Positions 10,123-42,647 of a stretch of DNA of 64,000 bases are shown one piece after another (position 1 is the first letter of the stretch; the number at the start of each line of letters is the position of its first letter). The translations under genes were made by a program, and so were the position numbers. Where the stretch lies: positions 551 through 64,550 of the forward strand of contig JAUSGT010000001.1 in assembly GCA_030648835.1 (NCBI GenBank). Reading direction: 5' to 3'. The DNA comes from Candidatus Moraniibacteriota bacterium (GTDB lineage: Bacteria > Patescibacteriota > Minisyncoccia > Moranbacterales > UBA1568). The notes beneath the pieces are model-generated. The model worked only from the letters and a program-made list of their open reading frames with translations. It was not told the DNA's origin and did no database searches.

Positions 10123-10153
10123 CTATAGGCGCATAGTTACTAGGCTTGTACGT

Positions 10154-10939: not shown

Positions 10940-12303
10940 TACTCAAAAATCTCATCTATATTCTGCAGAGCGAGAATTACGATTTCTGGCGTTTTCTCTC
11001 TTTTTGTTACTCGCATCTTCTTTGGTGGCGGCTGGAACAGCGCCAAAGAATCGTCTGGACGATGAAAGCGCGCGCTCTGCAATGGGTGAGTGCGCTCTTG
11101 TTTCTGGGTGTGGCCACCGGAGCTATTTTTTGGCTCGGATGGAACAGAGGCTCTGTCGTTCTGGCCTTTTGTATCGTGACATTGCCTTTCTTCATCGGAG
11201 CAACGCTTCTCCTCCTTCTGCCACTGGATCACTATCTCAAATGGAAAAAGGTATCGCAAGCGAGAGCAATAGTAGAGAAGTCTGGGGTGCAAGTGATCGG
11301 CATCACGGGAAGCTATGGCAAGACGACCACCAAAGAAATTTTGGCCGCTATTTTGGAGAAGCGGTTTTCCGTGATAAAAACGCCGGACAATATCAATACG
11401 GACATTGGCATCGCTGATTTTATCATAGGCCACTCCGGAAAATTCACGAAGGAGAAAATTTTTATTGTCGAAATGGGAGCACACAAGCGAGGTGAGATAG
11501 AAAGCATTTGCCGGATGGTTTTACCCGAGTATTCGATCCTGACCGGTATCAATGAGGCGCATCTGGAGCGTTTCGGCAGTCTCCAAAACATTATTGAGAC
11601 GAAGTTCGAGTTGCCCGCGCATACCGAGAAGCTGACGATCCTCAATGGTGATGACGAAAATGTGAAAAAAAACTATTCTCGATTTGTTAAAATTAAAAAT
11701 ATTTGCGTAACGGGAGCTGACGCACAGGATGTTATCGCCAAAGAAAATTTTCAGGGCTGGCAGTTTGTTTGGCAGGGGACGAATTTTGAGATAGCTCTCC
11801 TCGCGAAACACAATATTACGCTTATCCTCTTGTGCGCGACACTAGCGCGAGAACTTGGACTCTCTCTCGAAATGATTCGGGAGGCTGTAAAGAATGTCCG
11901 ACCGATACCACACAGACTGGAGCCTCTTTACAACGCTGTAACTGGTATTATGGTGATTGATGACAGCTACAATGGCAATGTGGCCGGTATCAAAAGCGGT
12001 ATCGAGCTCTTTGGTTTGGCCAAGGGAAGAAAAGTGGTGTTGACACCGGGGTTGGTGGAGCTGGGCGAAGAATCGGAGCGGATCCATCGACAGATAGGAG
12101 AACTGTATGCGAAGAGCGCTGATCTGGTACTCCTCATCAAGAGTCCTATGACGCCGTTTGTAGAGGATGGTTTGAGGACTCATGCATATACGGCTTATAC
12201 CGTGTATACTACGACAGAGGAAGCCCACAGAGACCTTCCCAATGTACTTCGAAGAGGAGATACGATTATTTTTCAAAATGACCTCACTGATAACTATTTT
12301 TAG
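10936..12303 (+). CDS. murF: UDP-N-acetylmuramoyl-tripeptide--D-alanyl-D-alanine ligase (MurF) with an atypical N-terminal transmembrane region
   Basis: P-loop 'GITGSYGKTTT' and the Mur-ligase middle and C-terminal domains. The first about 120 aa contain two predicted TM helices instead of the usual soluble domain 1. The start is set at the ATG overlapping the upstream stop. Confidence 0.8.
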   Translation: MILKNLIYILQSENYDFWRFLSFCYSHLLWWRLEQRQRIVWTMKARALQWVSALLFLGVATGAIFWLGWNRGSVVLAFCIVTLPFFIGATLLLLLPLDHYLKWKKVSQARAIVEKSGVQVIGITGSYGKTTTKEILAAILEKRFSVIKTPDNINTDIGIADFIIGHSGKFTKEKIFIVEMGAHKRGEIESICRMVLPEYSILTGINEAHLERFGSLQNIIETKFELPAHTEKLTILNGDDENVKKNYSRFVKIKNICVTGADAQDVIAKENFQGWQFVWQGTNFEIALLAKHNITLILLCATLARELGLSLEMIREAVKNVRPIPHRLEPLYNAVTGIMVIDDSYNGNVAGIKSGIELFGLAKGRKVVLTPGLVELGEESERIHRQIGELYAKSADLVLLIKSPMTPFVEDGLRTHAYTAYTVYTTTEEAHRDLPNVLRRGDTIIFQNDLTDNYF

Positions 12304-19168: not shown

Positions 19169-19597
19169 TTGAAAGAAGGTAACGGGATAAACAAAAATAT
19201 GTATGAAGAACAGCCTTCGTCTTCGCGACCGCTGAGAGTCGCTTTGTTGGTGTTATTTTTCGTTCTGCTCGCAGCGCTGGTTCTCGTTATCTTGACGCAG
19301 AAGGGTTTACTCGGTAAGAAAACCGGAACCACCATCCAGTCTCAAACAGGGACCACTACTCCAACAGGAAATCAAAGGCAGGCAACGTCTGGTGAGGCCG
19401 TTCCCGCCGCCACCTCGCAGCCTGTTTTTTCGGAAGAAGTTCAAAATCAATTTAAGGCAATACAGGATCAGGTCAATGCAGGCACAATCACTCCTGAAGA
19501 AGCTTCAAAACAGCTGAATTCACTCAACATTCCTCCTCCGCCGATTCCACCTGAAATCCAGAAGCAAATTGATGAAGCGACAAAAGCTCAACAGTAG
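19169..19597 (+). CDS. Small N-anchored hypothetical protein (paralog of the 28074 gene)
   Basis: 142 aa. The N-terminus 'SSRPLRVALLVLFFVLLAALVLVILTQKGLLGKKTGTT' is near-identical in pattern to that of the 28074..28646 product. T/Q/P-rich linker. Confidence 0.55.
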   Translation: MKEGNGINKNMYEEQPSSSRPLRVALLVLFFVLLAALVLVILTQKGLLGKKTGTTIQSQTGTTTPTGNQRQATSGEAVPAATSQPVFSEEVQNQFKAIQDQVNAGTITPEEASKQLNSLNIPPPPIPPEIQKQIDEATKAQQ

Positions 19598-19950
19598 TCA
19601 GATATACCAGCAGTGGCTGTGTTTCTTGGTTAGAGATGGATGTTTGTAGCTGAAAGGCTGTAAGATCAGCAGCTACGAGCAATATATTTTCTTGAAAAAA
19701 TTAAATGACACCTCTACATATGTGGTGGGTTTGTTGTTGCGATCCAGAGAATTTTCATATTCATATTTCACAGGGTTGACCTCGTTTACAAATAATACTG
19801 TTGTTTTGCTTTTCAAACGATGTAAGACGAAGTCACCTATCGGTTTGTATCAAGCGGATAATCGCCATCCCGTTTGGATTTGTAATGGGGTTGACAAATG
19901 ATTAAAAAAATCAGGGTTTTTGTGCTAGAATGAAACAGAAATGAGCTTGA

Positions 19951-22347
19951 ATGGAAAAAAATACAAAAACAGGCAAGAAAAAAAATTTATTTCGAATACT
20001 CTTCCCCTTTATGAAAGGTAGAACGGGAAAAATCCTTTCATTTTTCGCTTCGCGGAGGCGTGATTATTTTTTTGTGTTTCATTCTCTGATGCGGGGGAGG
20101 AAAAACATAAAAAAATACGCTTATTCCGGCGGACTGATTTTTCTTTTTGCTATCGTTCTCTCCTCGACCGTTTATTTTCAGGACCGGCGTTCTCATGAAT
20201 CTGCCTCGTCGGTGGAAGTTGGCTTTTTCTCTCTTTCTCCCAACGGTTCTCTCGGAGGTGAAATTCTCCCGGCTTCCTGCGAATCTGGTACTATTCATGA
20301 GATGTCTGGCTGTGACATGACCTTTTGGGCTGATAGCACATCACTGCCTTATGGCGGGAGTACCAGCTTACATTGGTACGTACCCACAGGGAATGTGAAT
20401 GCTTATGTCGGTGTTATGAATTCTCATCCCGGCTATCCCGATGGCTTGGAAATTGGTCATATTCAAAGCTGTGTTGCTTCGGGTGACTGGAGCGGTGATC
20501 AAAACGCCAGACCTTATCCTGAAACATACTCTTATTGGTCAACCATCGGTGGTGGTTATCATTTTTATGCTCGACAAAGTGACCCAGGCACAGGATCCTT
20601 AACTTCAACCAAGACGTATAATTTAACCTGCACCATCAACTATCCGGCTTCAGGGGGACAAGATGTGGTGACGAAAAGCGTGACGGTGAATGTTGCGCCG
20701 CATCCTCCCGCTGCCGCCATTTCTGCTGTGCCCAACACGATCCCGTGGAATAGCGCGTCTTTACTTATTTTGGACTCGCAATACTCTACGCGTTGTGGAC
20801 TGGGATATTATGACTATTCCGGAGTTTGGAACAATTCTTCGATAACTCCCAATACAACGATCTACCAATCCACGGGGCCGCTTACTGCCAATCGGACCTA
20901 TTATTTCACCTGTGACAATGGCACTCAAAGCAACCCTGGTGGTTGGCAGCCCGTTGCTATTACTGTTGATCCCGCGCCTACTTCATCCATTTCTGTCTCT
21001 CCTCCTAATCCCGTACCCAATGGCGCCAATCCTAGCTTCACGCTGAACACGAATGCCACAGCTTCTATCTGTTATGTCCGGCATATATTTCCGAATGGTG
21101 TGTGGGACTCGTGGGGTGTGGATAACGCCACCCCGGGTGCTCCGGGTGGAACGTACTATCCCGGACCACAAACCTATTCCGGTACTCATTATGCCGCTTC
21201 TTATTGCTACAATTCCCTTTGGAAGGGACCTACCGTCTGGACGTATACGGGCTTCACTGTTGATCCGGCGCCTACCGTCTCCGTCTCTATCTTACAGAAC
21301 CCTCCTGTACCTTACGGGAGCAACCCGGGTTTCAAACTGGAATCGCAAAATACCGCCGGAGGTACATGCTACATCCAAGTGGATGGTGCCTATCTCACTG
21401 ACGGAACTGATATCTATTTGCCCACATCTGGGACATTTTATCACGGTGCCTTTACCTCACCGGGAACGCATAATTACCGGGCCTTCTGTTACAATTCTGT
21501 AGGGTACGGTACTGGTTGGACGCCTCCAGCTCCGACGAATTATTATTATTTTACCGTCGACCCCGCTCCCACTGCCTCTATCTCTCCAAATGTGACCATA
21601 CCGTATGGGAGCAGTACCACACTCACTCTTTCCAATACCAACTCTTCAACGTGTTATCTGTACAGCACGGCCACTGGATGGGATTACACAAACCGTGCCG
21701 GTACCACCTCTTACAATACAAGCCCTCTGACCGCCACCACTTCCTATACATATCATTGTACGAATGGATATGTTTGGAGTGATAATTATCTTGGCGCTAA
21801 CAATCCAGGCTATCCATGGGCTACGGTTACTGTCGAACCGCCACTACAGCTGTGTCGTAATATAGGAGGAACCTATCAAAAAATTGCAACTCAGGGCGGC
21901 ACGGCTGGTTTTGAGTTGCTCGTTCATGGAGAAGAGTCTGCAATACTTAGGACATATCTCAATAATGCGAATAATTGTTCAGGAAGGGATATAACAGATC
22001 AAACAATTTTTGTCGAGAAAAATAATCCACAAGATGTTATCAGGGTAACTGGTTCGAATCCAAAAATTGTTGAAGCGACTTTGGATATATTACCTCCCAA
22101 AAAGCAGTCAGGAACAGAACGAATTGTTGTCTCCTATAACGGACAGGAGGTTAGTCGAGACATTAACGTTGATGTAGCTGTAGTAGAAAATTGTGTATGG
22201 GACTGTTCGCTAACAGAGAAAGACCATTGTTCAGTGGATGCCAATAATGAAAAGCTAAAGTACAAAGTAACTGACAGCTGCGACATCGAACAGTCTTGCG
22301 ACGGCAAAAGATACTGTGATTACAATTACAAGGAAGTGTCGCCGTAG
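19951..22347 (+). CDS. Large secreted/surface protein with tandem Ig-like repeats and the conserved Cys-rich C-terminal cassette (P1)
   Basis: 798 aa. Internal hydrophobic anchor, three tandem 'FTVDPAPT...' beta-sandwich-like repeats, and a C-terminus '...SCDGKRYCDYNYKEVSP'. The true start may be the internal MRGRKN. Confidence 0.6.
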   Translation: MEKNTKTGKKKNLFRILFPFMKGRTGKILSFFASRRRDYFFVFHSLMRGRKNIKKYAYSGGLIFLFAIVLSSTVYFQDRRSHESASSVEVGFFSLSPNGSLGGEILPASCESGTIHEMSGCDMTFWADSTSLPYGGSTSLHWYVPTGNVNAYVGVMNSHPGYPDGLEIGHIQSCVASGDWSGDQNARPYPETYSYWSTIGGGYHFYARQSDPGTGSLTSTKTYNLTCTINYPASGGQDVVTKSVTVNVAPHPPAAAISAVPNTIPWNSASLLILDSQYSTRCGLGYYDYSGVWNNSSITPNTTIYQSTGPLTANRTYYFTCDNGTQSNPGGWQPVAITVDPAPTSSISVSPPNPVPNGANPSFTLNTNATASICYVRHIFPNGVWDSWGVDNATPGAPGGTYYPGPQTYSGTHYAASYCYNSLWKGPTVWTYTGFTVDPAPTVSVSILQNPPVPYGSNPGFKLESQNTAGGTCYIQVDGAYLTDGTDIYLPTSGTFYHGAFTSPGTHNYRAFCYNSVGYGTGWTPPAPTNYYYFTVDPAPTASISPNVTIPYGSSTTLTLSNTNSSTCYLYSTATGWDYTNRAGTTSYNTSPLTATTSYTYHCTNGYVWSDNYLGANNPGYPWATVTVEPPLQLCRNIGGTYQKIATQGGTAGFELLVHGEESAILRTYLNNANNCSGRDITDQTIFVEKNNPQDVIRVTGSNPKIVEATLDILPPKKQSGTERIVVSYNGQEVSRDINVDVAVVENCVWDCSLTEKDHCSVDANNEKLKYKVTDSCDIEQSCDGKRYCDYNYKEVSP

Positions 22348-22450
22348 AGGGGGAGAGAGAATCGTGAGTTGAGAAAGATGTATCAAAAAAAAGGGGCACC
22401 ACTCGCCCCTTTTCGTGTTATAATGACAACAAACATATACACAAGTAATT

Positions 22451-24199
22451 ATGCGTATCGAACTTGATCAGCTCAAAAGTTTTTTGCTTGATTCTAATCT
22501 CATCCCCAAGGAAAAAGTGGAACAGGCAGCGGCAGAAGCCGAGAAGAATGAGAAAAATCTTGGGGTACTCCTTTTGGAGAAAAAACTCATTCAAGAAGTG
22601 GAGTTGCAGAAAGTGTACGCCTATATTCTGGGTATTCCGTTCGTGGATCTTTCCAAGGAAACCATACCGATCGAGATACTGCAGATTGTTCCGGAGCTCA
22701 TTGCCAAAAAATACAATATTGTTTCTTTCGAAAAAACCGGAGTCAATCTGAAGGTGGCCATGCTCAATCCCGAGGATCTCCAGACGATCGATTTCATCAA
22801 GAAAAAAACCGGCTTGAAAATTGTGCCGTGTCTCACCACTCAGGAGAGCATCCAGGCGATACTTCGTCAGTATGAGAAGAGTCTCAAAGCGGAGTTTGGC
22901 GACATTTTGACAGGGGAGATCAAACCGGACGGCGAGAGTCAGGACGATGAGGATCTCGAGCAAGTGGCTGCGGGTCTGCCCATCATCCGTATCGTGGATA
23001 CGCTTTTGAAACACGCCATTCTCGAATCGGCAAGCGATATCCATATCGAACCGGAAGAAAAAGAAGTGCATGTCCGTTATCGGATCGACGGCGTTTTGCA
23101 TGACGCGATGACTTTGCCCAAAGACGTGGCGGCCGGCATTGTGGCACGCATCAAAGTGCTCTCCAATTTGAAACTGGATGAACATCGTCTTCCACAGGAC
23201 GGGCGATTCAAGATCCAGAGTGACGAGTACAAGATCTCTTTCCGGGTCAGTATGTTGCCGGTGTTTGACGGGGAGAAAATTGTGATGCGTCTTCTGGACG
23301 AGACCTCCAAAGGGTTGACGCTCGAGAAAATGGGGCTGAATGGCCAGGCACTGGAAGCGGTACACCGGGAAATCAGCAAACCGAACGGTATGATCCTCGT
23401 CACCGGTCCGACCGGTTCCGGAAAAACAACGACGCTCTATACCGTGATGGATATTTTGAATACCCCGGAAGTGAATATCTCGACCGTCGAGGATCCGGTA
23501 GAATATCGGATGCCGCGCGTGAATCAGACACAGATCAATCCGAAAGTCGGGATGACGTTTGCCGCGGCGCTGCGCTCCCTTTTGCGTCAGGATCCGGACA
23601 TCATCATGGTGGGGGAAATTCGCGACCAAGAAACCCTGGAAATCGCCATGCACGCGGCGATGACGGGGCATCTGGTGCTTTCTACTCTCCATACCAACAA
23701 CGCGTCCGCGACATTGCCTCGGATGCTCGATATGGGAGCGGAACCGTTTCTCATCGCCTCAACGGTGAATGTCATTATCGCTCAGCGTCTCATCAGGCGC
23801 CTGTGTGTCGAATGCCGCAAGGCCTATCAGCTCGACAAAAAAGAAATCGAATCACTTCAAAAATTCTATACTATCGACGATATTTTCACCTATCTCAAAA
23901 ACGATCCTGCCAGTAAGAAATATGTCGAGAAGGCAAAGAGTTGGGAAGAAATTACCATGTACAAGCCGGTCGGCTGCGATAAGTGCGGAGGTGAAGGCTA
24001 TCATGGTCGCAACGGTATCTATGAGGTTCTGCCGATGACCGACGGTATCCGCAAGCTGGTGACGCAGTCGGCGTCGACCGAGATGATCGAGACCGAAGCC
24101 AAGAAGAGCGGGATGGCGACGATGGTGGAGGATGGTTTTTCAAAAATCGTGCAGGGGATGACCTCGCTCGAAGAAGTGATGCGCGCGACGAAGGAGTAG
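22451..24199 (+). CDS. pilB: Type II secretion / type IV pilus assembly ATPase (GspE/PilB family)
   Basis: 582 aa. N-terminal GSPII_E N-domain, Walker A 'GPTGSGKTTTLY', and the tetracysteine motif (CVEC...CDKCGGEG). Confidence 0.9.
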   Translation: MRIELDQLKSFLLDSNLIPKEKVEQAAAEAEKNEKNLGVLLLEKKLIQEVELQKVYAYILGIPFVDLSKETIPIEILQIVPELIAKKYNIVSFEKTGVNLKVAMLNPEDLQTIDFIKKKTGLKIVPCLTTQESIQAILRQYEKSLKAEFGDILTGEIKPDGESQDDEDLEQVAAGLPIIRIVDTLLKHAILESASDIHIEPEEKEVHVRYRIDGVLHDAMTLPKDVAAGIVARIKVLSNLKLDEHRLPQDGRFKIQSDEYKISFRVSMLPVFDGEKIVMRLLDETSKGLTLEKMGLNGQALEAVHREISKPNGMILVTGPTGSGKTTTLYTVMDILNTPEVNISTVEDPVEYRMPRVNQTQINPKVGMTFAAALRSLLRQDPDIIMVGEIRDQETLEIAMHAAMTGHLVLSTLHTNNASATLPRMLDMGAEPFLIASTVNVIIAQRLIRRLCVECRKAYQLDKKEIESLQKFYTIDDIFTYLKNDPASKKYVEKAKSWEEITMYKPVGCDKCGGEGYHGRNGIYEVLPMTDGIRKLVTQSASTEMIETEAKKSGMATMVEDGFSKIVQGMTSLEEVMRATKE

Positions 24200-24258
24200 C
24201 CAATTGCTTGATTACTTTCAAATTTTATTAATTTTTAAGCAGAGGGAATATAGGTAAG

Positions 24259-25713
24259 ATGAAATCAAAAAAGCAAAAATACAATTTGTTATTTTTGAAA
24301 ACTCTAGTGGCGGCAGTTTTTGTTTTCGTTCTGCCACTTTTTGTTTTTGCGCAGACATCCAATGAACCTACATCATTACCTGCACAAAATGTGGAAGTCA
24401 GTCCCTTGACGACATCGCCTCCGCCATCTTTCATTTCTCCAAACGCATTTCAAGGGCAGCCAACCGGACTCAGCTCCTGCTTTGACTATTACCGCTTCGG
24501 TTCCATACAGGTGAGTGTCTCGCCATCGCTCTCTCAAGTGATGCAGGGATCCGCTATCGCCTTCTCCGGTACCGTCACCAACCAAAATCACTATCCCATC
24601 ATTGATGCGACCGTCTACATCAAGATTTTTCATGATCGCACGGGCGGCGCAAAAAATATAAACGGTCCCGACGTGGTTGATTGGTTCCCCGCGGCTGAGC
24701 ACATCACGCTCAAAGCCGATGAATCGAAACCGCTCTCATTCGTCTGGCAGGTGCCGTATGACGCTGACCCGGGTGCGTATAAAGCGGCGATGTATGTGAC
24801 GGCATCCGACCGTTTCGAGCTCTCCGGCCTTGTCTTTACTGACGATGTCACGGGGTCTATGGAATCGTTCGATGTGGTTGGCAGCGCTTCTGGCGATACG
24901 CGCTTCGACAAAGCTAGAGTAACGATAAACGACATCCCCTTCTATTTTGCTGCGTTCCCTCCCACTATTGCGGCATCAACAAAGACCGTCACGGTGTCTG
25001 TCCCCGTAATGAATTCGTCCGCTCGATCTTACGCCGGAACGCTCTCTTGGAAACTCTATTACTGGGATCAGCTTCAGACAAATCATCTTATCGCGCAGTC
25101 GAGTGTCGCCATCAATCTTAATCCCGAAAGCGCCACGACGGTTTCGTATGTCGTGAATGATACTGCTCATGCAGTTTATTATCTCGTCGGCTCTCTCGAG
25201 AACTCGATGAGCGGTGCGAAGTCAATTATCGGCGTACGCTTCGTACGCGAAGGAGTTGCCGAACCGCGCATCAATGCGATGGGGGTAAGTGCCTATCCAC
25301 CCACGCAGGGTGCAACAGCTTTTGTCTGTGTGCACTCGACGAGCAATGATCTGTCCCAGAACGCGCGGGTGGAGTTGTCGGTAACGCCTGTTGGTTTTCT
25401 TGCCGGTCTTTTGGGGCCGCGTGCGCATACCGCCTATACAGGAATTATTCCGGGCGATATCTATGCACTCACCGCACCGATTGCGGGCAGAGCATCCTCT
25501 TTTGACCTCACCGCCTTCCTTTACGACGGACAGGGCGCTTTGGTTGATAGTGTGACGATACCGTATCGCTGTAGCGATCTCGGCGCAAAGTGCAATGATA
25601 TGACTTTGCCGATAATTCTTGGCACTCTTGCTATCGTCGTTATTATTGGCGCAATCATTATCGTCCGACGTCGGCATGCATATGCCCGACAACAGAATCA
25701 ATCAAACGTATGA
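24259..25713 (+). CDS. Cell-surface protein with a signal peptide and a C-terminal TM anchor plus basic tail
   Basis: 484 aa. Signal peptide 'VAAVFVFVLPLFVFAQT'. C-terminus 'LPIILGTLAIVVIIGAIIIVRRRHAYARQ'. Its stop overlaps the next start (ATGA). Confidence 0.6.
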   Translation: MKSKKQKYNLLFLKTLVAAVFVFVLPLFVFAQTSNEPTSLPAQNVEVSPLTTSPPPSFISPNAFQGQPTGLSSCFDYYRFGSIQVSVSPSLSQVMQGSAIAFSGTVTNQNHYPIIDATVYIKIFHDRTGGAKNINGPDVVDWFPAAEHITLKADESKPLSFVWQVPYDADPGAYKAAMYVTASDRFELSGLVFTDDVTGSMESFDVVGSASGDTRFDKARVTINDIPFYFAAFPPTIAASTKTVTVSVPVMNSSARSYAGTLSWKLYYWDQLQTNHLIAQSSVAINLNPESATTVSYVVNDTAHAVYYLVGSLENSMSGAKSIIGVRFVREGVAEPRINAMGVSAYPPTQGATAFVCVHSTSNDLSQNARVELSVTPVGFLAGLLGPRAHTAYTGIIPGDIYALTAPIAGRASSFDLTAFLYDGQGALVDSVTIPYRCSDLGAKCNDMTLPIILGTLAIVVIIGAIIIVRRRHAYARQQNQSNV

Positions 25714-27983
25714 GAAGTTATCGCGCGAATCAAAGCCGAACCATCTATTTTGTTTTTGCATTCGTGCTTACCGTGCTTTTGACGCCGGTGCGGAGCGAAG
25801 CAGCTTCGGCGACATGGAGCAAAACAATGTCAGACACATACCTTGCGTATGCCTGGAATAATGGCGGGTGTTCCGGAACAGGTGGTTATACGTTGGGGCT
25901 TGCGAATCCAAGCTTCGGTGTCACTTATAACGCTCAAGTTCTCTCATCGTCTGGGGTTCCTATAGCTTCTTCCGGTACAGTGACGAGCGGTCAGTCGGTC
26001 ATTCTCAAATTTCAACCTCACCAATCATCCGATATCTCGTGGTTTGGAACGGGGTATTCAACGGACACTCCTTTCGGCGAATGGGGGACTTCCGCTCCGG
26101 CGTTGACATGTGACAGCAAGGATCAGGTGACTACTTGGAGTATGTATGGAATACGGGCATACATCCCTCTGGTAATAGCTCCTCCGACACAGACGCTTTC
26201 AAATCTTTCCGGGCTCTCGTGCGGTGTTTTGACTCACAATAGTGATGGAAGCGACCAGACGACTTGCACCGTTACGGCAACGAGCGGCACTCTTTCTCCG
26301 ACTTTCGACTTTGCGGCGACTACGGGAACGCTTTATTACCGGTATGACAAGTATCCGTATAGTTGTACTCCAAATGCGTGTGTGGCAAATAATACTCCTA
26401 TGGCGCTTATGAATGCCGGTTCCGGGGCTACTATCGCAAACTGGTACCAAAAAGGAGGAACCATAGGAATAGGAGCTCTTTGGAATGCTTCTACCACTCC
26501 TTTTCAACTTTCCGTTACTGACCAAAGCATCTCATACAGTCTGACTGTTTCTCCGCCTGCCGCATCGCCAAATACACCAACAGTTACCTGTCCTGCTACT
26601 GCTACCGTCGGACAGAACGCCTTTTTCACCGTTACCGGGACAGACCCGAACGGTTTGACGATACGTTATGGTATGGACTGGACCGGTTCAAGTTCTACAC
26701 CTAATGAATGGACTCCTGTAAGCGGGTATGTGCTTTCCGGTACGCAAATGATGTTGATGCATACCTGGGCTTCTGCTGGTATCTACGGGGTTCGTGCACT
26801 TACGGAAAATTCACAGGGTGGACAATCCGGCTGGTCAACGGGTTGTACAGTGACCGTCACTCTTCCGCCGCCGCCAACTATACTTTTTGTCGTATCTCCG
26901 ACATCGGTTATAACATACGCGAGTTCGCTTACGGCTTCTATCGGAAGTGAAACTGCCGTGTTGTCATGGTATTCCATAGGCGCTACTTCGTGCACGGCTT
27001 CAGATTCGTGGTCCGGATCAAAAGATATCGGATTTATGCCAATAACGTGGGCGTCTTGGCAAGAAACAGTCGGGCCATATGCGACTGCAGGGAGCTACCT
27101 ATATACGCTTTCTTGTACTGGTTTAGGTGGTACTGTGTCGAAGACGGTGACAGTCACTGTCAACGACACTTTTCCCGTCACTACCTTCACCGGTACGTAT
27201 GCCGGACTACCAGCCCAAACGAATCTGACCACTCTCAACCTCCCAGTTGGCGGAGGCAGTGTCAATCTCAATTGGTCTGTCACGAATGCTGCTTCAGGAA
27301 TCTGTACCGGATACTCAACCACAGGAGTAACTGATTGGGCAACGACTGGAACTGACGGCAAACCAGTGACTGGCACAAATGTCTCAGTCACTGTCTCTGG
27401 TACAACGACATTTGATCTCGATTGTTGGAATACCTCTACAACCCCATGGGTAGCAGCCACTCGGCAGTCTGTCGTGGTGAATGTGGCTGTTCCCCCCTCC
27501 ACTCTCAAGATCTGCCAGGACTCTTGCCAAAACTCTTACCGTACTCCTCGTGGCCAAGGCGGCGCCACGACAAGCTTCAGCCTTGTCAAAGGCACTTCCC
27601 AAGACCTGGTTGCCTGCTACAATACTGTCTCTGACTGTTCTGATTCTTCAGGCGATGTTACAGCATCACCCGGTACTGTTTGGGCAGAAGATGCTTCTAA
27701 CAATATTATTTCCCTTTCTTCGGTTCTGGGCAAAGAACGTGTCACCGGCGACGCTCCTGGCACGGAAAACTTCACTGCCCAGTACAGCGGAGCAACCGCT
27801 ACGATGGCTGTTTCTGTCACCTGCGTTGAAACGGTGACATGCACCTCCGAACAAAACAAAGTCTGCTCCGGCAAAACAGTACCCGCCGGAACAACCCTTA
27901 CCGGAATTTGTGGGCCAGTCTACTGCGAAGGCAAGTCCGGCAAGAGATATTGCGACTTCAACTGGAAAGAAGTGGCTCCGTGA
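25710..27983 (+). CDS. Large secreted protein with Ig-like repeats, a Big_2-like domain and the conserved Cys-rich C-terminal cassette (P2)
   Basis: 757 aa with a signal peptide. Ig-like repeats fit the pattern 'S..L.W......C.....W.G....TYTL.C.G.GG..S.TVTV'. The C-terminus is 'CEGKSGKRYCDFNWKEVAP'. Confidence 0.65.
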   Translation: MRSYRANQSRTIYFVFAFVLTVLLTPVRSEAASATWSKTMSDTYLAYAWNNGGCSGTGGYTLGLANPSFGVTYNAQVLSSSGVPIASSGTVTSGQSVILKFQPHQSSDISWFGTGYSTDTPFGEWGTSAPALTCDSKDQVTTWSMYGIRAYIPLVIAPPTQTLSNLSGLSCGVLTHNSDGSDQTTCTVTATSGTLSPTFDFAATTGTLYYRYDKYPYSCTPNACVANNTPMALMNAGSGATIANWYQKGGTIGIGALWNASTTPFQLSVTDQSISYSLTVSPPAASPNTPTVTCPATATVGQNAFFTVTGTDPNGLTIRYGMDWTGSSSTPNEWTPVSGYVLSGTQMMLMHTWASAGIYGVRALTENSQGGQSGWSTGCTVTVTLPPPPTILFVVSPTSVITYASSLTASIGSETAVLSWYSIGATSCTASDSWSGSKDIGFMPITWASWQETVGPYATAGSYLYTLSCTGLGGTVSKTVTVTVNDTFPVTTFTGTYAGLPAQTNLTTLNLPVGGGSVNLNWSVTNAASGICTGYSTTGVTDWATTGTDGKPVTGTNVSVTVSGTTTFDLDCWNTSTTPWVAATRQSVVVNVAVPPSTLKICQDSCQNSYRTPRGQGGATTSFSLVKGTSQDLVACYNTVSDCSDSSGDVTASPGTVWAEDASNNIISLSSVLGKERVTGDAPGTENFTAQYSGATATMAVSVTCVETVTCTSEQNKVCSGKTVPAGTTLTGICGPVYCEGKSGKRYCDFNWKEVAP

Positions 27984-28073
27984 GGGGACTGGCGGTTTTC
28001 TATTCTTGGTGATTCTTCTGGATGGAGTATACTGAAAACAGTTACGTTTTATAAATGAAACATACACAAGAAT

Positions 28074-28646
28074 ATGCTTGAACAGTCTTCACGACCGTTG
28101 AAAGTTGCTCTATCAGTATTATGTGTCGTCATGCTTGCGGTGCTTGTTCTTGTTATTTTGGGAGAGAATGGGGTGCTCGGAAAGAAAACAGTAATTACCC
28201 AGCCCGCCGTTACTACGAGCCAGTCTCAACCACAAACTGTACAGCCGGTACCGCCGACAGAAGTGCGCAGAGTACTCGGTACGGTAGAAAAAGTTTCCGG
28301 TCAAGAGATCATGCTTAAGGATTTTAGGAAAATATCGAGTATTGTTACCGCTGTATCCGATCAATCGGAGCGTATGTTTGTCACCGTCGATCAGTCGACG
28401 ATTATTGAACGCTTTACGTATAAAGACGCAACAACCATAGCGAAAGAGCAGGATGCTTTTGTTAAAAATATTCAAGAAATACAACGACAAAACCCGTCTG
28501 TCCCTCCGACACCGCCGGAACCTTTTACGTTTGAAAAAATTACATTGAGTGATATCAAAATTGGTGACAAAGTTATGGCGTCTTTTGGGGAGGATATATC
28601 AAACCTTGCGACTTTCACAGCGACAAAAATAGAAGTACGAAATTAA
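28074..28646 (+). CDS. Small N-anchored hypothetical protein (paralog of the 19169 gene)
   Basis: 190 aa. N-terminus 'SSRPLKVALSVLCVVMLAVLVLVILGENGVLGKKTVIT'. Confidence 0.55.
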   Translation: MLEQSSRPLKVALSVLCVVMLAVLVLVILGENGVLGKKTVITQPAVTTSQSQPQTVQPVPPTEVRRVLGTVEKVSGQEIMLKDFRKISSIVTAVSDQSERMFVTVDQSTIIERFTYKDATTIAKEQDAFVKNIQEIQRQNPSVPPTPPEPFTFEKITLSDIKIGDKVMASFGEDISNLATFTATKIEVRN

Positions 28647-28650
28647 ATTT

Positions 28651-30411
28651 ATGAGATCAAACCATTTTCATCTAAAATTTATTGCAGTAGCGACATTGTT
28701 TTTGTTTGTTGGGATTTTCCCGATTCGACAGACTCATGCTGCTGCTGACGGCACCCTTTTTGGTTGGGGGATGAATTTCTACGGCAATCTCGGCTTAGGT
28801 TGGGCCAGCCACGGTTATAGCAATGCCCTAGGTTTTTCCCGTGACTATGTCCTTTCTCCGACCCAAGTCGGGATGGCAACAAATTGGGCCAGCATCTCGG
28901 CGGGAAACTTTTTTGTTATGGCCACAAAGGCCGACGGCACCCTGTGGGGTTGGGGGAATAATTCCTCCGGTCAGCTCGGTTTAGGCTACATTTCTAACCC
29001 GCCTTACTCTTGGGATTCTGGGTATTCTACCGGTATTTGGTCCCCGACCCAAGTCGGATCGGGAACAAATTGGGCCAATGTCGCGGCAGGGGACAGTTTC
29101 GTTTTAGCCGTAAAAACCGACGGCACCTTGTGGGCTTGGGGAGGTAATCCTGATGGACAACTTGGTTTAGGTGATACAATTAGTCGTTCGGTACCAACTC
29201 GGGTCGGGACAGATACAAATTGGTCTGGTGCTGTGGGGAAGATTTCCGGAGGATATGCAAATTCTGCGGCTGTAAAAACAGACGGTACTATTTGGGTTTG
29301 GGGAAGTGATGTATTTGGCGAGCTCGGTCAAGGCAACACCAATGGTGCCATCAGTCGCTATTATCCGACCCAAGTCGGAACGGCGACGAATTGGGACAAA
29401 GTTTCGGCGATGGGTCAATTTACCGTTTTAGCCACCAAGACCGACGGCACCCTTTGGGCTTGGGGAGATAATATGTATGGCCAGGTTGGTCCCGGGTATG
29501 TCGACTACTCTGGTAATGGTCAACATTCTGTACCGGCTCAAGTTGGGACGGGGACAAATTGGAGTAGTATTGGTCAGGGAGATACATACTCTATGGCTTT
29601 AAAGAGGGATGGCACTATGTGGGTCTGGGGTAGGGTTTCTATCCCGTTCGCCGTCAATTGTGATGTGTCGGGCTGCTATGGGATGACAGGTTCTCCGACC
29701 CAAGTTGGGACGGCAACGGATTGGCGTAGTTTTGGAGCATATCCCTATCCCACCAGCGTGGCTGCTATAAAGACAGACGGTACCCTGTGGGATTGGGGGA
29801 ATAATTGGTATGGTAATCTCGGCTTAGGTGATACCGTCACTCGCAATTCCCAGACCCAGGTCGGAACGGGAACAAATTGGGACAGCGTTACGTCGGGCAT
29901 ATATGGAACTATGGCAATAACAGGCACACCTCCTCCTCCAACCACCCTCAAAGCATGCGTGAGCTCCTGTACTACGACGGGAGCCAGTGCCATCACGAAT
30001 TTGACTATGGCTTACAATAGTACGAGTACTATCGCAGCTTGTTACAACACCGCCGCAGCCTGTGATGCGCCCGATAACACTGGGAATGTTACTCTTTCTT
30101 CTGCATGGGCAGAGTCCGGGACAGACGTTGTTTCTCTCTCGGATCAAAGCAATAGTACGAAGAAATTCCAATCAGGAACAGCATATGGCACGGAAACAAT
30201 CACTATCACATATCTGACACAATCAGTAACACTGAATGTGACCGTACCTTGCATCGAAACGATGACATGCGCTGCTGAACAGACAAAAGTCTGTTCCGAT
30301 AAAACAGTGCCCACTGGAAAAACTCTTTCCGGAATCTGTGGAACAGTCGACTGCGGCGGCAAGCCTGGCAAGAGGTATTGTGATTTCAACTGGAAAGAAG
30401 TGGCGCCGTAG
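28651..30411 (+). CDS. Secreted RCC1-repeat (beta-propeller) protein with Big_2-like domain and the conserved Cys-rich C-terminal cassette (P3)
   Basis: 586 aa with a signal peptide. At least seven 'DGT[LI]W[AGV]WG.N..GQLGLG' RCC1 repeats. The C-terminus 'CGGKPGKRYCDFNWKEVAP' is about 70% identical to the P2 tail. Confidence 0.7.
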   Translation: MRSNHFHLKFIAVATLFLFVGIFPIRQTHAAADGTLFGWGMNFYGNLGLGWASHGYSNALGFSRDYVLSPTQVGMATNWASISAGNFFVMATKADGTLWGWGNNSSGQLGLGYISNPPYSWDSGYSTGIWSPTQVGSGTNWANVAAGDSFVLAVKTDGTLWAWGGNPDGQLGLGDTISRSVPTRVGTDTNWSGAVGKISGGYANSAAVKTDGTIWVWGSDVFGELGQGNTNGAISRYYPTQVGTATNWDKVSAMGQFTVLATKTDGTLWAWGDNMYGQVGPGYVDYSGNGQHSVPAQVGTGTNWSSIGQGDTYSMALKRDGTMWVWGRVSIPFAVNCDVSGCYGMTGSPTQVGTATDWRSFGAYPYPTSVAAIKTDGTLWDWGNNWYGNLGLGDTVTRNSQTQVGTGTNWDSVTSGIYGTMAITGTPPPPTTLKACVSSCTTTGASAITNLTMAYNSTSTIAACYNTAAACDAPDNTGNVTLSSAWAESGTDVVSLSDQSNSTKKFQSGTAYGTETITITYLTQSVTLNVTVPCIETMTCAAEQTKVCSDKTVPTGKTLSGICGTVDCGGKPGKRYCDFNWKEVAP

Positions 30412-30425
30412 GAAAAGTATTTCAG

Positions 30426-33002
30426 TTGTTGTATATTACAATCAAAATGCAAACAGAAAAACAATTACAAAACCTAATATTTTTAAGCATTGGTATAGTG
30501 GCAGCATTTGTTTTTGCTGTTCCGTTTTTTGTTCTTGCGCAGGAAACAGAGGGACCTGTTTTTGGTGACACAGTCCAGAGTAAAGCCGTGCTTTTGGCAA
30601 CAGTGAATATTTATAATGCTACTTTCATACAAACCGGAAACAATTTCTCCCTTTCCTTTGATTTAACGAATAAGGTTGGTGTTCAGCCGGGGATCAAATA
30701 CAGCGCCGTTCTCATAAAAGAAACAAAAGAGGGGCAGGTTGTTGTGGATGAACATGTCTATGACGAAGTTGTGGCTCTCGGTGAGAATAGCTCTGTGCAT
30801 AAAATAGTCGACTATACAGCCCCAGCCAATTTGGAAGGCGAATATACTCTTCTTATTTCAAGTAAAAATACGAGTGATTTTCCTTTTGGGCAAATCTTGC
30901 TCGGTACAGTAAACCTTCAAAAGAGCGCCACTGATGCGAATCCAATTGCTATAGACACACAGAGTTGCTACCTGACAGTAGAAGGGGAAGAAGGCCAGCC
31001 GCACCACGTCCCTTCTCAGGGCGTTGTTATTTCTTCTGCCGAAAATTTACAAAGTAATTGTTTGGTAGAGAATACTTCGAGTTCTCCAGTCGTTACCACA
31101 CCTTTATTTACCACTCGCGCGCGTTCAAATTTTGGCGGTACAGTAGACGCGCAAGGTGGTGATATCGGCTCCATCACACTGGCTCCGTACGAAAAGAGAA
31201 TGGTTGTCACCGCGCTCCCGAAACCGTTACTGTCTCAATCCTACTCTGTGAATCTGCAATATGGATCAACAAGCAATAGAATCTCCTATTATTACGTTAT
31301 TTCGGGTGGTGGCGCGACGATTCAAAGCATCCTTTTTGATAAAGACAATTATACAAAAGGAGAAACAGCGGATATTTCGTTTATGTGGTCACCATCCGTC
31401 GATACTCTTCGTAGCTTTTCTCAGGGAACAACCCCAAAACCAACTACATTTTCTGTCACTATTTTACTGGTTGACGAAAACGGAAATTCTTGTGCCAATC
31501 CTTTCAATCAATCCGTTACCAGCCAAGAAATGCGGTTGGAGCTTACGATACCTATGACTGCTTCTTGTCTTCACCCGAAAGCGGATGTGACACTCATGGA
31601 CGCACAGTCAAACACGTCATCCCACGTCTCATTTGAGACAGGGGTGGCATCTCCATCTTTGCAAAAAGGACCCAATGTAAAAATTGTCGCTCTTTCCGTG
31701 TTTGTGATCCTCTTATTCATCATAGGCGCCTTTGTCTTTTACAGAAAAAGAATTCGTATTTCTCTGCCGCCGACCTTGCTCTTCTTTATTGTCGTTATGG
31801 GGAGTATGTTTCTTGGCCCAGGCAGCGCGAAAGCGGATACATTTGCTATGGGTTACGGAGTTTACACAGTGTCAATCAATAAAGCCTCATATGCACCTGG
31901 TGAACCAATGACAATTTATGGTTCGGTGCGAAACCTCGTACCTTCTCTTACTTTTGAATTTCGTCTTTTCTATGCTATCGATACAAGTATTTATAATTCA
32001 TGTCCAAGTTGTCGCAATGTTTTTGATGTAGGTGTCGGGGGATCTCCTTATTCAACTTCTGTCAGCGCTTTTGCCCCATCTGGTGTAGGGGGGCATAGTG
32101 TTACTTTTCTTGCCGCTGATGCTGTGTTTGCGGGGGTTCATACGTTAGCGGGTGGTTTTACTGTTACATCGGCGTGCGCCCCAGATCAAGGTACTGCGTG
32201 TCCTTCAACAACTGCCAACGTTTGCGGTCAGACTCAGTCCGACGGCGCTATTCAATGCGATGGTTCTTGTTCATCAACTACGCCACCGATAACTACTCCC
32301 AATGGTACTACCTATCGTGCTTCCTGTGTCTCTTCCACCAACGCCTGTGATCAGACTCAGTCCGATGGCACTATTCAATGTGATGGTTCTTGCTCATCGA
32401 CTCCTCCACCGAATTCAAATTGTCCGCTTCCTACTCTCGATTTTTCTGCCAACCCGACCACAGTTACGTCTGGTGATTCATCAACCATCACCTGGACGAC
32501 AACTAATGCTACCTGGTGTTGGGCATGGTCGGATAATACGATGAACGATGGGAACTGGACAATTTTTGATGATGGCACCCCGGGTGATAATTGGAAAATT
32601 AGTACTGATGGAACTCATACTCAAACTGTCTTTCCGACTGCTTCCACTACGTATAGTATGGAATGCGGAAACAGTATCGATGCTTCTTCCGGAGCAAAGC
32701 AAGCCACGGTGACGGTGCCTGCGAGAATAAATGGTGGATGGTCTCTTTGGTCAAACTGTTCTTCTACAACTTGTGGAACGGATGGGACACAAACGAGAAC
32801 GTGTACCAACCCCGCTCCTTCGGGCGGCGGTGCGGATTGTGTTGGACCTCTCACTCAGAGTTGCACCAATCTGCCTTGCTGTATTCCGGATTGCAGCGCG
32901 GCTGTCAATTACTGTAGTGGCACTAGCTTCGATGACAGTTGTGGGGGATCATGCACCGGTACTCGCTTTTGCAATTTCAATTGGAAAGAAGTGGCGCCGT
33001 AG
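30426..33002 (+). CDS. Fusion-like surface protein: an N-terminal paralog of the 24259 anchor protein, an internal TM and signal-like segment, a thrombospondin type-1 repeat and the conserved Cys-rich C-terminus (P4)
   Basis: 858 aa. The signal peptide 'VAAFVFAVPFFVLAQETEGP' resembles that of the 24259 product. An internal stretch 'VALSVFVILLFIIGAFVFYRKRIRISLPPTLLFFIVVMGSMFLGPGSAKA' has TM, basic and signal-peptide-like character. The TSP1-like stretch is 'WSLWSNCSSTTCGTDGTQTRTC'. The protein ends 'FCNFNWKEVAP'. Confidence 0.6.
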   Translation: MLYITIKMQTEKQLQNLIFLSIGIVAAFVFAVPFFVLAQETEGPVFGDTVQSKAVLLATVNIYNATFIQTGNNFSLSFDLTNKVGVQPGIKYSAVLIKETKEGQVVVDEHVYDEVVALGENSSVHKIVDYTAPANLEGEYTLLISSKNTSDFPFGQILLGTVNLQKSATDANPIAIDTQSCYLTVEGEEGQPHHVPSQGVVISSAENLQSNCLVENTSSSPVVTTPLFTTRARSNFGGTVDAQGGDIGSITLAPYEKRMVVTALPKPLLSQSYSVNLQYGSTSNRISYYYVISGGGATIQSILFDKDNYTKGETADISFMWSPSVDTLRSFSQGTTPKPTTFSVTILLVDENGNSCANPFNQSVTSQEMRLELTIPMTASCLHPKADVTLMDAQSNTSSHVSFETGVASPSLQKGPNVKIVALSVFVILLFIIGAFVFYRKRIRISLPPTLLFFIVVMGSMFLGPGSAKADTFAMGYGVYTVSINKASYAPGEPMTIYGSVRNLVPSLTFEFRLFYAIDTSIYNSCPSCRNVFDVGVGGSPYSTSVSAFAPSGVGGHSVTFLAADAVFAGVHTLAGGFTVTSACAPDQGTACPSTTANVCGQTQSDGAIQCDGSCSSTTPPITTPNGTTYRASCVSSTNACDQTQSDGTIQCDGSCSSTPPPNSNCPLPTLDFSANPTTVTSGDSSTITWTTTNATWCWAWSDNTMNDGNWTIFDDGTPGDNWKISTDGTHTQTVFPTASTTYSMECGNSIDASSGAKQATVTVPARINGGWSLWSNCSSTTCGTDGTQTRTCTNPAPSGGGADCVGPLTQSCTNLPCCIPDCSAAVNYCSGTSFDDSCGGSCTGTRFCNFNWKEVAP

Positions 33003-38073: not shown

Positions 38074-38532
38074 ATGTTTATGTTGAAAGCTAACAAAGGG
38101 TCTGCCCTTGTTTTCTCACTAATCATTCTCGGATTTCTTTTGGTATCGGCTCTTTCCGTGGCGACTATCGCGGTGGCCGACAAAAAATCCGCTCTCTCTA
38201 CCGAGAAGTCCGGCATTTCTTTTCAGACTGCCGACAGTGGGATAGAGAGAGTTTTGCAAACAATTTATAAGAAGGCACCTACAGGCTTGGAAAGTTTGGC
38301 AACTAAATTGGGAGGCGGAGCTTCTTGCAGGAGTGGAGTGGTTTCTTTCTCTGTCGCTCAAGGAAACGTGAAAGTTTTCTTTTATGAAGGTGTAGAAGGT
38401 AAAACTCTTTATACAAGATGTAATAATGATGCTACTTGGCGGAGTACTATCAATAAAATTAAATCCGTAGGGACGTATGCCAATACGACGCGAGTGGTGG
38501 AAGTGAGCATAAATCCCCCTTCTCCTCCTTGA
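38074..38532 (+). CDS. Putative type IV pilus minor pilin / pseudopilin (PilX N-terminal-like)
   Basis: 152 aa. N-terminus 'KANKGSALVFSLIILGFLLVSALSVATIA' resembles the PilX_N hydrophobic segment. There is no canonical G-F-T-L-I-E prepilin cleavage motif. Confidence 0.4.
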   Translation: MFMLKANKGSALVFSLIILGFLLVSALSVATIAVADKKSALSTEKSGISFQTADSGIERVLQTIYKKAPTGLESLATKLGGGASCRSGVVSFSVAQGNVKVFFYEGVEGKTLYTRCNNDATWRSTINKIKSVGTYANTTRVVEVSINPPSPP

Positions 38533-41079: not shown

Positions 41080-42180
41080 TTATGTTCGGATATAGTGCAT
41101 GTTGCCGACATTGTGTATCAATCCTTTTATTTCGAGGAGTGTGAGGATGGAATTTGCGGACGATGTTTCCAGTCTAGCTTCTTTAATAATCTTGTCAACG
41201 TGGAGGGGTTCGTGCGAGAGGAGTTTGAAAATTTTTTCCTCTTCAGGAGAGAGATTGGGGCGAACGGACAAATCTGTTTCCCCTAACTTATTTTTTAGTG
41301 GGTGAGTTTGAGGAAGCTCTTCGAGAATATCCTGTACCGATGTGATTATTTTGGCGCCGGCTTTGATGAGGCGATGGGTGCCAAGCGAAGCTTCCGAAAA
41401 AATGGATCCCGGTACTGCAAAGACTTCCCGATTGTAGTCAATGGCCAGCCGGGCAGTGATGAGCGCTCCGCTTTTTTCCGGAGCCTCGATGACGACTGTG
41501 CCGAGTGTCATACCGGCGATGATGCGGTCGCGAGCCGGGAAGGTTCCTTCGGTAGCTTTGACGCCGGGGGCATACTCGGAAATGAGCGCGCCGGCATTCA
41601 CCACGGCACGGGCTAAAGGAAGATGCGATTGGGGGGAGATAGACGCTTCGTCGACTCCGCTTCCCAGGATGGAAAGTGTTTCACAACCGGCCTCAAGGGC
41701 GGCCTTGTGAGCGATGGAATCGATGCCAAAGGCGAGGCCGGAGACTATCACATACCCGGCATGCGCGAGATCGGTCGCGAGACGTTTGGCTACTTGTTCA
41801 CCGTAACCGGTAAGTTTGCGCGTGCCGACTATGGCAATGAGCGGTTTTTCCTTCCAATCATAATTACCGCGCACGAAAAGAATCATCGGCGCGTCAGGGA
41901 TCTCTTTCAAGAGGCGCGGATACGCTTCATCGGTGAAAGCCAAAATATGTACTCCTTGGTCTTCGATATGTTGCCACTCCTTGTTAGGCTGGAGGGAATT
42001 TCTTCCGGCAGTAATAGCGGCGACGGTGATGGGGCCGAGACCGTTTACGGCGAGGAGGGATTTTTCATCCGCTTCCCAAATGGCCTCGGCCGAACCGAAA
42101 TGGACAATGAGATCGCGGAGCGTCTTGTTTCCGATTCCTGGGATGAGACTGAGAGCGTAGAGGATGGCAGTCGGGCGCAT
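41080..42180 (-). CDS. dprA: DNA processing protein DprA (Smf)
   Basis: 366 aa with the Rossmann-like DprA core 'GIDSIAHKAALEAG...'. It lies upstream of topA in the conserved smf-topA arrangement. Confidence 0.85.
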   Translation of the reverse strand: MRPTAILYALSLIPGIGNKTLRDLIVHFGSAEAIWEADEKSLLAVNGLGPITVAAITAGRNSLQPNKEWQHIEDQGVHILAFTDEAYPRLLKEIPDAPMILFVRGNYDWKEKPLIAIVGTRKLTGYGEQVAKRLATDLAHAGYVIVSGLAFGIDSIAHKAALEAGCETLSILGSGVDEASISPQSHLPLARAVVNAGALISEYAPGVKATEGTFPARDRIIAGMTLGTVVIEAPEKSGALITARLAIDYNREVFAVPGSIFSEASLGTHRLIKAGAKIITSVQDILEELPQTHPLKNKLGETDLSVRPNLSPEEEKIFKLLSHEPLHVDKIIKEARLETSSANSILTLLEIKGLIHNVGNMHYIRT

Positions 42181-42534: not shown

Positions 42535-42563
42535 CATAAAAGGTATACAATAGAAAATACACA

Positions 42564-42640: not shown

Positions 42641-42647
42641 CTATACA

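Follow-up and report, generated by a model that had tools for sequence, protein, structure and literature searches.

Four secreted proteins end in the same six-cysteine tail

We analyzed a 64,000-nucleotide stretch of DNA (hereafter the window) from a Candidatus Moraniibacteriota bacterium (assembly GCA_030648835.1, contig JAUSGT010000001.1, positions 551 to 64,550), in which four forward-strand genes, P1 to P4, encode large secreted proteins that finish in a shared cysteine-rich tail. In the source metagenome-assembled genome (MAG; Candidatus Moranbacteria), the genes carry locus tags Q7S04_00105 to Q7S04_00120. The four genes and their terminal domains are listed below in window coordinates; P4 also contains a domain of the type encoded by the gene at 24259-25713 (the 24259 family, described further on).

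19951-22347, +: P1, 798 aa by open reading frame (ORF) call (the annotated version, P0011, has 778 aa); secreted; three ~98-aa tandem repeats precede a sandwich domain and the tail
22192-22344, +: P1 six-cysteine tail, C748 to P798, final residues CDYNYKEVSP
25710-27983, +: P2, 757 aa by ORF call; secreted, with a sandwich domain and the tail at its end
27498-27821, +: P2 Big_2-like sandwich, directly before the tail; 47% identity to the matching region of P3
27822-27980, +: P2 six-cysteine tail, C705 to P757, final residues CDFNWKEVAP
28651-30411, +: P3, 586 aa; signal peptide, RCC1 propeller, Big_2-like sandwich and tail
30250-30408, +: P3 six-cysteine tail, C534 to P586, final residues CDFNWKEVAP
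30426-33002, +: P4, 858 aa; natural fusion of a 24259-type domain, membrane hairpin, passenger, TSP1 domain and tail
32736-32879, +: P4 TSP1 domain, aa 771-818, just before the tail; Pfam TSP_1, E 2.5e-5
32880-32999, +: P4 six-cysteine tail, C819 to P858, final residues CNFNWKEVAP

Each tail holds six spaced cysteines, and all four proteins close on the ending C-x-[FY]-N-[WY]-K-E-V-[AS]-P-stop, which a six-frame scan of the window found nowhere else. The tails of P2 and P3 are 73% identical (estimated at about 70% in an initial annotation of this DNA), and their last 163 aa are 47% identical (E 3e-35); the alignment of P1 with P2 is weak, yet it extends to the final residue. A hidden Markov model (HMM) of 149 tails from the wider family scored the window tails at 48-60 bits, with the matches reaching the last residue in P1 (51 bits) and P3 (59.6 bits). 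In the DNA, a 45-nt repeat at the 3' end of each of the four genes is 73-89% identical between copies, which differ at synonymous positions. The tail is thus conserved at the protein level, by selection, and recent gene conversion is rejected as the source of its identity. No hydrophobic segment lies within the last 60 aa of any of the four, and all of them have one at the N-terminus. The initial annotation, which had singled out these four ORFs by a cysteine-rich tail devoid of hydrophobic segments, was correct on both counts.

The passenger domains of the proteins are unrelated, as had also been proposed. The propeller of P3 matches Pfam WD40_RLD (E 1e-56) and RCC1 (E 5e-41), the three repeats of P1 recur as units of 294-297 nt in the DNA, and the TSP1 domain of P4 scores 24.8 bits against a cut-off of 21.6. 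For P4, which had been described simply as a passenger with a tail, the tail and TSP1 are real, but the first ~440 aa form a 24259-type domain and the true start is probably the ATG at 30447. P4 also contains two tandem cysteine-rich units of ~41 aa (32215-32289 and 32338-32412; …C.QTQSDG.IQCDGSCSST.PP…) that are 85% identical as DNA and have no Pfam match. A promoter and terminator scan of the cluster gave background-level signals only and was uninformative on operons.

The tail is confined to the extreme C-terminus in a family of Moranbacteria proteins

We searched 1.84 billion representative sequences exhaustively with HMMER, using a profile of the four tails, and recovered 177 protein clusters (defined at 50% identity) at E <= 1e-3, 12 of them at E <= 1e-10. 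We then examined 151 tails, comprising 150 proteins among the matches listed and P3. The terminal motif lay 0-3 residues from the protein end in 150 of the 151, followed by nothing (95), by G-x (about 40), by one residue (9), or by TGN or TAN (6). There were no internal or repeated copies, and no protein among the 151 had two. Separately, we looked for CD[FY]NWKE in one genome per GTDB species and obtained 47 confirmed loci. The HMM of 149 tails, run over all ORFs in the window and the 47 loci (693 kb together), gave 57 matches, each of which stopped 0-2 residues before the stop codon. The expectation that relatives would carry the tail at the very end of proteins with signal peptides was thereby borne out: a clear N-terminal hydrophobic segment is present in 103 of 151 representatives, export being judged from such segments and not by a dedicated signal-peptide predictor, and most of the others look like 5'-truncated fragments.

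The tail spans about 45-55 aa. Across 184 unique tails its signature is C-x3-5-C-x6-12-C-x8-14-C-x3-6-C-x-G-[TS]-R-x-C-[DN]-[FYM]-N-W-[KR]-E-[VI]-[AST]-P, then 0-3 residues and the stop, with a fifth-cysteine spacing of 5(-8). Conservation is strongest towards the end (G 99%, R 90%, D 88%, N 98%, W 94%, K 84%, V 88%, P 93%), so that the last ~14 residues are nearly invariant over paralogues and species. All four window tails fit the six-cysteine spacing and the terminal pattern apart from two departures in P1, a 16-residue third loop, found also in 2 scanned tails, and a Y replacing the W.

By their database labels, ~19 of the 47 loci belong to Moranbacteria or Moraniibacteriota and ~22 to 'uncultured Bdellovibrionales', with a few unclassified; the Bdellovibrionales label is probably wrong. 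On third-party annotation (TPA) MAG contigs so labelled (L010, L017, L021, L033, L036, L039 and others), we noted a PilB 73-83% identical to the PilB of the window (see below). Two of them, L021 and L039, have a window-like gene order of YchF, PilB, 24259/P2, RelA, Fur and ZIP, as judged from gene lengths and families. A 1.9 kb contig labelled Nanoarchaeota that carries a tail gene (L013) is probably mis-binned. At one further locus (L030), the 112-nt tail-coding 3' end of a 1,717-aa tail gene is copied at 94% identity (10057-10168 and 11377-11488). The second copy lies 1,320 nt downstream, past the next gene, in a 60-aa ORF, and may be a recombination remnant or a sign of the tail moving as a cassette.

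The four window tails matched nothing in Pfam or NCBIfam at E <= 0.1, and the tail profile matched no PDB sequence at E <= 10. Comparison with known cysteine-rich domains (cystine-knot/CTCK, knottin and carbohydrate-binding mini-domains) gave no sequence or fold match, and full-text searches of the literature on cysteine-rich, C-terminal and surface proteins of Moranbacteria and the Candidate Phyla Radiation (CPR) turned up no account of it. Because it is absent from Pfam, NCBIfam and PDB, the tail family is new; a shared C-terminal handle as a kind of feature is already known. From its sequence distribution, we regard the tail as a previously undescribed C-terminal domain that appears specific to Moranbacteria. 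An AlphaFold2 model of the P2 tail, built from a 108-sequence alignment, had a mean predicted local distance difference test score (pLDDT) of 89.9. It contains one short helix and two or three strands, likewise short, and confidence is lower over the final six residues (pLDDT ~67). A single-sequence prediction of the sandwich and tail of P3 was uninformative (pLDDT 41).

The strict terminal position and the almost invariant short motif could mean that the terminal peptide is a signal for a processing or attachment enzyme, with a protease or transpeptidase removing it and possibly linking the protein covalently to the wall or to another protein, in a sortase-like manner but with no membrane helix. 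The lower model confidence of the last six residues would suit an exposed peptide, and related lineages have a shorter terminal motif (see below). We nevertheless consider this quite unlikely. No candidate enzyme is conserved beside the tail genes, where no recurrent candidate sorting enzyme was found, and none of the 38 window products scanned against Pfam, a subset of the ORFs, was of the sortase, exosortase or S41 type. Known systems of this sort also need a transmembrane helix after the motif, which the tail does not have, and a folded three-disulfide domain exceeds the needs of a cleavage signal.

The carriers are secreted proteins with diverse adhesin-like modules

A Pfam census of 86 full-length members found Big_2, TSP_1, RCC1, PKD, CARDB, LCCL, Sushi, fn3 and InlB-repeat domains, so the passengers are diverse, adhesin-like extracellular modules. 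Most signal peptides end in A-x-A-type sites, as in P2, P3 and P4, from which many carriers are probably released from the membrane. A Big_2-like sandwich as in P1-P3, with family membership detected iteratively, precedes the six-cysteine knot in 116 of 142 representatives (about 82%), and the usual constant unit is for this reason ~150 aa long. In P4-type members a TSP1 domain takes the place of the sandwich before the knot. The constant module of ~150 aa described in the initial annotation thus stood, but its Big_2 label depends on sub-threshold or family-level Pfam matches: Big_2 (PF02368) is the commonest Pfam match in the family, in 8 of 86 members with a best E of 1.9e-9, whereas the window proteins fall below its threshold and P3 matches only Big_3 at E 0.034.

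The adhesin-like architecture raises the alternative that the knot is itself a ligand-binding tip, the protein being held by its N-terminal anchor or hairpin while sandwich and knot lie distally and bind a ligand, for instance a glycan, of the host or the environment. Intimin and invasin bind their ligands through a C-terminal lectin-like domain, and the combination of Ig-like repeats, a Big_2-like domain and a small disulfide domain resembles them. The invariant F/Y, N and W are also aromatic and polar residues of a kind typical of sugar-binding sites, and the hairpin-anchored members are already attached to the membrane. This reading is nonetheless unlikely in our judgment, given that the passengers are themselves diverse binding modules, which fits a variable part joined to a constant handle, that near-invariance over paralogues and species would be unusual in a host-facing tip, and that most of the signal peptides have A-x-A-type sites.

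A structural role was also considered, in which the tail is a cap or oligomerization module like the C-terminal cystine knot (CTCK) of CCN proteins, mucins and von Willebrand factor, with no dedicated receptor. Like the tail, with its six conserved cysteines, CTCK domains are cysteine-rich and sit at the extreme C-terminus of extracellular multidomain proteins, and in CCN proteins the knot directly follows TSP1, as it does in P4-type members. CTCK domains, however, have ~90 aa and 10-11 cysteines against ~45 aa and 6 cysteines in the tail, which is bacterial and confined to one lineage, and neither sequence (Pfam included) nor fold comparison connects the two. Conservation in the tail is highest in the last non-cysteine residues and not in the scaffold, and this role would leave the linkage to the 24259 family unexplained; we find it very unlikely.

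The 24259 family is paired with and fused to tail proteins

Immediately upstream of P2 lies a gene for a candidate anchor or receptor, and a domain of the same type opens P4:

24259-25713, +: 24259-family protein; signal peptide, ~400-aa ectodomain, C-terminal transmembrane helix and basic tail; candidate anchor/receptor
31677-31835, +: P4 internal hairpin, aa 418-470; transmembrane helix, basic loop (YRKRIRIS) and second hydrophobic segment ending GSAKA/D

The hydrophobic segments of the 24259 product span aa 7-35 and 445-474, and its stop codon overlaps the start of P2 in the sequence ATGA. P4 and the 24259 product have signal peptides of 46% identity, and the first ~440 aa of P4, a 24259-type domain, are followed by two hydrophobic segments. 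The second of these is a probable embedded signal-peptide-like element with a putative signal peptidase site. An internal transmembrane hairpin is present in 31 of the 151 representative tail proteins (about 20%), and all 31 fused representatives share the arrangement of a first transmembrane segment, a basic loop and a second segment ending in an A-x-A-type motif. A 24259-family HMM matched 11 of the hairpin tail proteins at E < 1e-10 and four more weakly. When 16 P4-type N-domains, the four weak matches included, were aligned with the 24259 family by hhalign, the probability was 99% (E 4e-18, 415 columns). The split order, a 24259-type gene followed by a P2-type tail gene, is kept at three loci (L010, L028, L036), and the fused form occurs at five (L021, L026, L030, L033, L039).

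The 24259 family itself is broader than the tail, with at least 97 homologues across Paceibacteria, some of them labelled Kaiserbacteria, Staskawiczbacteria, Minisyncoccota or Paceibacterota. None of the 97 contains a convincing Pfam domain; the sub-threshold matches are Ig-like only (MG2, WxLIP_PGBD, PilY2), and the family profile found nothing meaningful among PDB sequences.

In other Paceibacteria the 24259 partner ends in a short terminal peptide

We picked nine loci from other lineages solely by 24259 homology; in two of them (L048, L050) the contig stops next to the gene. In all seven loci with visible flanks, an adjacent gene encodes a secreted protein, often with a 4-nt overlap with the 24259 homologue. 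Most of these neighbors are P2 orthologues, with P2 aa ~10-480 aligning at 24-37% identity (E 1e-19 to 1e-56). Because the pair is conserved across Paceibacteria lineages, the combination of 24259 and P2 is old. At their C-terminus the neighbors have an Ig-like domain and, after it, P-x-[FWV]-x-E-[FILR]-stop or TWKEISPFQ-stop:

Short-ending loci: L049, L051-L058; e.g. L057 2434-5925 and 7509-11141; L053 9422-11428 and 12511-13905
Endings: VPDVVEF, IPEFTEF, VPGVTEF, LPVWKER, RPDWKEI, VPVFQEI, IPQFQEI, LPRWEEF, LPKFKEF, IPDFQEF, VPDFQEF, VPSFQEL; TPTWKEISPFQ in L049

Among 2,256 ORFs of at least 80 aa, the short ending gave 11 matches, namely eight such neighbors and three RNase J proteins. It may be a C-terminal tag broader and simpler than the Moranbacteria knot, which would derive from it. 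The end of the knot, (F-N-)W-K-E-V, looks like an elaboration of P-x-[FW]-x-E-[FIL]-COOH that would later have spread to unrelated cargoes. Together, the ATGA overlap, the conserved adjacency, the recurrent fusion and the Paceibacteria pair lend comparative support to the 24259 type as a candidate partner of the tail, as the initial annotation had suggested.

Other genes beside the tail genes

The initial annotation had also considered that the small anchored proteins of the cluster might be partners of the tail, and that the PilB-like ATPase encoded between P1 and the 24259 gene might service the system:

19169-19597, +: small N-anchored protein, 142 aa, upstream of P1; hydrophobic segment aa 17-50
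22451-24199, +: PilB/GspE-type assembly ATPase with an MshEN N-domain; T2SSE PF00437 E 4e-137, PF05157 E 4e-15
28074-28646, +: small N-anchored protein, 190 aa; ends 4 nt before the start of P3

The ATPase scores 593 bits against TIGR02538, under the equivalog cut-off of 675.65. Its orthologues (73-88% identity) occur near tail genes in 7 of the 47 loci, five of which (L010, L021, L033, L036, L039) have them next to the 24259/P2 unit itself, and the PilB loci have in common the frame YchF, PilB, 24259/P2, RelA, Fur and ZIP. This presence would suit a tail that directs export or display through a PilB-driven machine, resembling a type IV pilus or type II secretion system. Such a role is extremely unlikely. 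PilB adjacency is confined to this one syntenic locus type, and in the nine loci from other lineages PilB is absent beside the 24259 homologues and 24259/P2 pairs. The window products scanned include no PilC, PilM or prepilin peptidase, and the carriers bear ordinary Sec signal peptides. A servicing role for PilB is unsupported because of its absence beside the pairs of other lineages, and we treat it as a syntenic neighbor, seen so far in Moranbacteria-type loci only. Among the window products scanned, the only other pilus- or competence-type genes encode a PilX_N minor-pilin-like protein (38074-38532), 5 kb away, and DprA (41080-42180, -), both within a few kb downstream of the cluster.

The membrane-segment region of the 19169 product is 59% identical to that of the 28074 product. 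Relatives of the former adjoin tail genes at three further loci (upstream in L004 and L020, downstream in L037), and small anchored proteins lie directly upstream of tail genes also in L004, L006, L014, L036 and L047. They recur, yet they belong to several unrelated small families, and a universal small N-anchored partner was rejected on this ground.

Two further families are found beside tail genes. Proteins of ~305 aa with a C-terminal transmembrane helix are encoded immediately downstream in six loci, and proteins of 500-750 aa with a lipoprotein-type signal (…LSACGGGG…) directly upstream in eight:

~305-aa family: e.g. L002 10148-11062; L030 10223-11140; L046 10090-11004
Lipoprotein-type family: e.g. 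L016 (3542-5476), L019, L022, L040, L042, L043, L046

Elsewhere in the window, 48271-54267 is a copper-handling cluster, which also encodes DUF411, cupredoxin/COX2-like and DUF302 proteins:

48271-49647: fusion of HMA, a DsbD_2/CcdA-like membrane domain and cupredoxin
49659-52070: P-type ATPase with HMA

The CcdA-like thiol-transfer domain may be relevant to an exporter of many disulfide-rich proteins. The window begins (1-646) with the 3' end of 23S rRNA and 5S rRNA, and it contains six tRNA genes, one at 7461-7544 and five clustered at 42304-42971.

Comparison with known anchoring and display systems

The closest analogue in layout is the WxL/WxLIP (DUF916-DUF3324) system of enterococci and lactobacilli, in whose clusters a neighboring protein made of Ig-like domains and a C-terminal helix holds the large proteins that end in a WxL domain, and which also include small anchored proteins (PMC10599100; PMC1534035). 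The tail proteins, the 24259 family and the small 19169/28074 proteins form a parallel layout, and the 24259 family likewise has Ig-like domains and a C-terminal helix. The two systems nevertheless differ, since the WxL domain has ~160 aa where the tail is a six-cysteine knot of ~50 aa, the tail system includes fused, polyprotein-like forms, and the hosts are CPR bacteria and Firmicutes, respectively. There is no WxL Pfam match in the four window proteins or in the families listed for the 86 members, and WxLIP_PGBD (PF06030) matches one of nine 24259-family members at E 0.003, which is sub-threshold, and none at the curated threshold. On these comparisons we see no sequence relationship between the systems, and we judge them not to be homologous.

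Dockerins resemble the tail as small conserved end modules on unrelated secreted proteins that dock to an anchored scaffold receptor, the cohesin-bearing one. They are, however, calcium-binding duplicated helical repeats without cysteines, the receptor of the tail is only a candidate, and no dockerin or cohesin Pfam match was found in the window proteins, the families of the 86 members or the 24259 family. The LPXTG/sortase, PEP-CTERM/exosortase and PGF-CTERM tags and the C-terminal domain (CTD) of the type IX secretion system (T9SS) are likewise strictly C-terminal, carried by diverse secreted proteins and lineage-specific. Tags of the LPXTG and PEP-CTERM type need a transmembrane helix. The tail differs from these and from PGF-CTERM in having neither such a helix nor basic residues after the motif, and it has no NCBIfam or Pfam match to any of the four. 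It thus lies outside the known tag families that we tested, in agreement with the initial annotation. T9SS, for its part, requires an outer membrane, which CPR cells are thought to lack (10.1101/335083). A type I secretion-type C-terminal signal was rejected, as the carriers contain many cysteines in addition to a Sec signal peptide.

A candidate handle for docking at the cell surface

Modules whose behavior is comparable, such as WxL, dockerin, SLH and choline-binding repeats, serve in surface retention or docking. We tentatively propose, with a probability of roughly 0.45, that the tail is a handle of this kind and that the 24259 family is its best receptor candidate. We favor this reading because a constant C-terminal unit is attached to variable modules, its position at the end is strict, its last residues are nearly invariant, and the carriers are exported by Sec. 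The six cysteines would form three disulfides, making a mini-domain on which the invariant end peptide is displayed. Enzymes of the MdbA/VKOR type, which form disulfides in secreted proteins, are encoded in CPR genomes (10.1101/335083) and could do so for the tail. The knot would then act as a common, non-covalent handle that keeps otherwise soluble secreted proteins on the surface of a cell without an outer membrane. Its most likely receptor would be the 24259-family type I membrane protein, with Ig-like ectodomains, whose gene is adjacent, translationally coupled or fused. In P4-like fusions, signal peptidase might cut the embedded A-x-A segment and so give equal (1:1) amounts of anchored receptor and tagged cargo. 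The knot itself may have been elaborated from the shorter P-x-[FW]-x-E-[FIL]-COOH ending of P2 orthologues in other Paceibacteria.

Several points weigh against this proposal. A 24259-type neighbor is missing beside most tail genes in the 47 loci, and ~80% of tail proteins are unfused to a 24259-type domain; because most are neither fused nor adjacent, the family, if it is the receptor, must act in trans. What the gene pair and the fusion show is only that the 24259 and P2 families work together, and the contact between them could be made by their two membrane segments as a split hairpin instead of by the tail. Hairpin-anchored fusions need no retention handle unless they are cleaved, and their presumed cleavage is read from A-x-A motifs only. 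Disulfide bonding of the tail cysteines is likewise assumed. The equation of WKEV with FQEF covers four residues and could be a coincidence. A cell-wall polymer in place of the 24259 family is also a possible binding target.

A broader scheme, which we regard as doubtful, would make these parts a two-part surface display system of Paceibacteria. Cargo exported by Sec would be tagged at its C-terminus with a short peptide (P-x-[FW]-x-E-[FIL]-COOH in most lineages, in Moranbacteria elaborated to the NWKEVAP knot), the 24259 protein would be its receptor, perhaps receiving the tag as an added strand of an Ig-like domain, and signal peptidase would split the precursor in fused forms. The tag, having spread to 177 clusters, would then mark the host-interaction surface proteome of an episymbiont.

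Significance

CPR bacteria are mostly uncultured, and they presumably deal with their hosts via surface proteins, nearly all of which are annotated as hypothetical. One HMM and one positional rule would give a simple listing of the displayed proteome of Moranbacteria, and the short P-x-[FW]-x-E-[FIL] ending may allow the same listing in other Paceibacteria. The tail may also represent a new small disulfide fold and could be of use in engineering as a display tag. If the fusions with embedded signal peptides are cleaved, they would represent an unusual bacterial polyprotein split by signal peptidase. Finally, the genetic tie between the tag and the 24259 family, through adjacency, coupling and fusion, makes the retention of adhesins on wall-poor CPR cells without an outer membrane a testable pairwise interaction.

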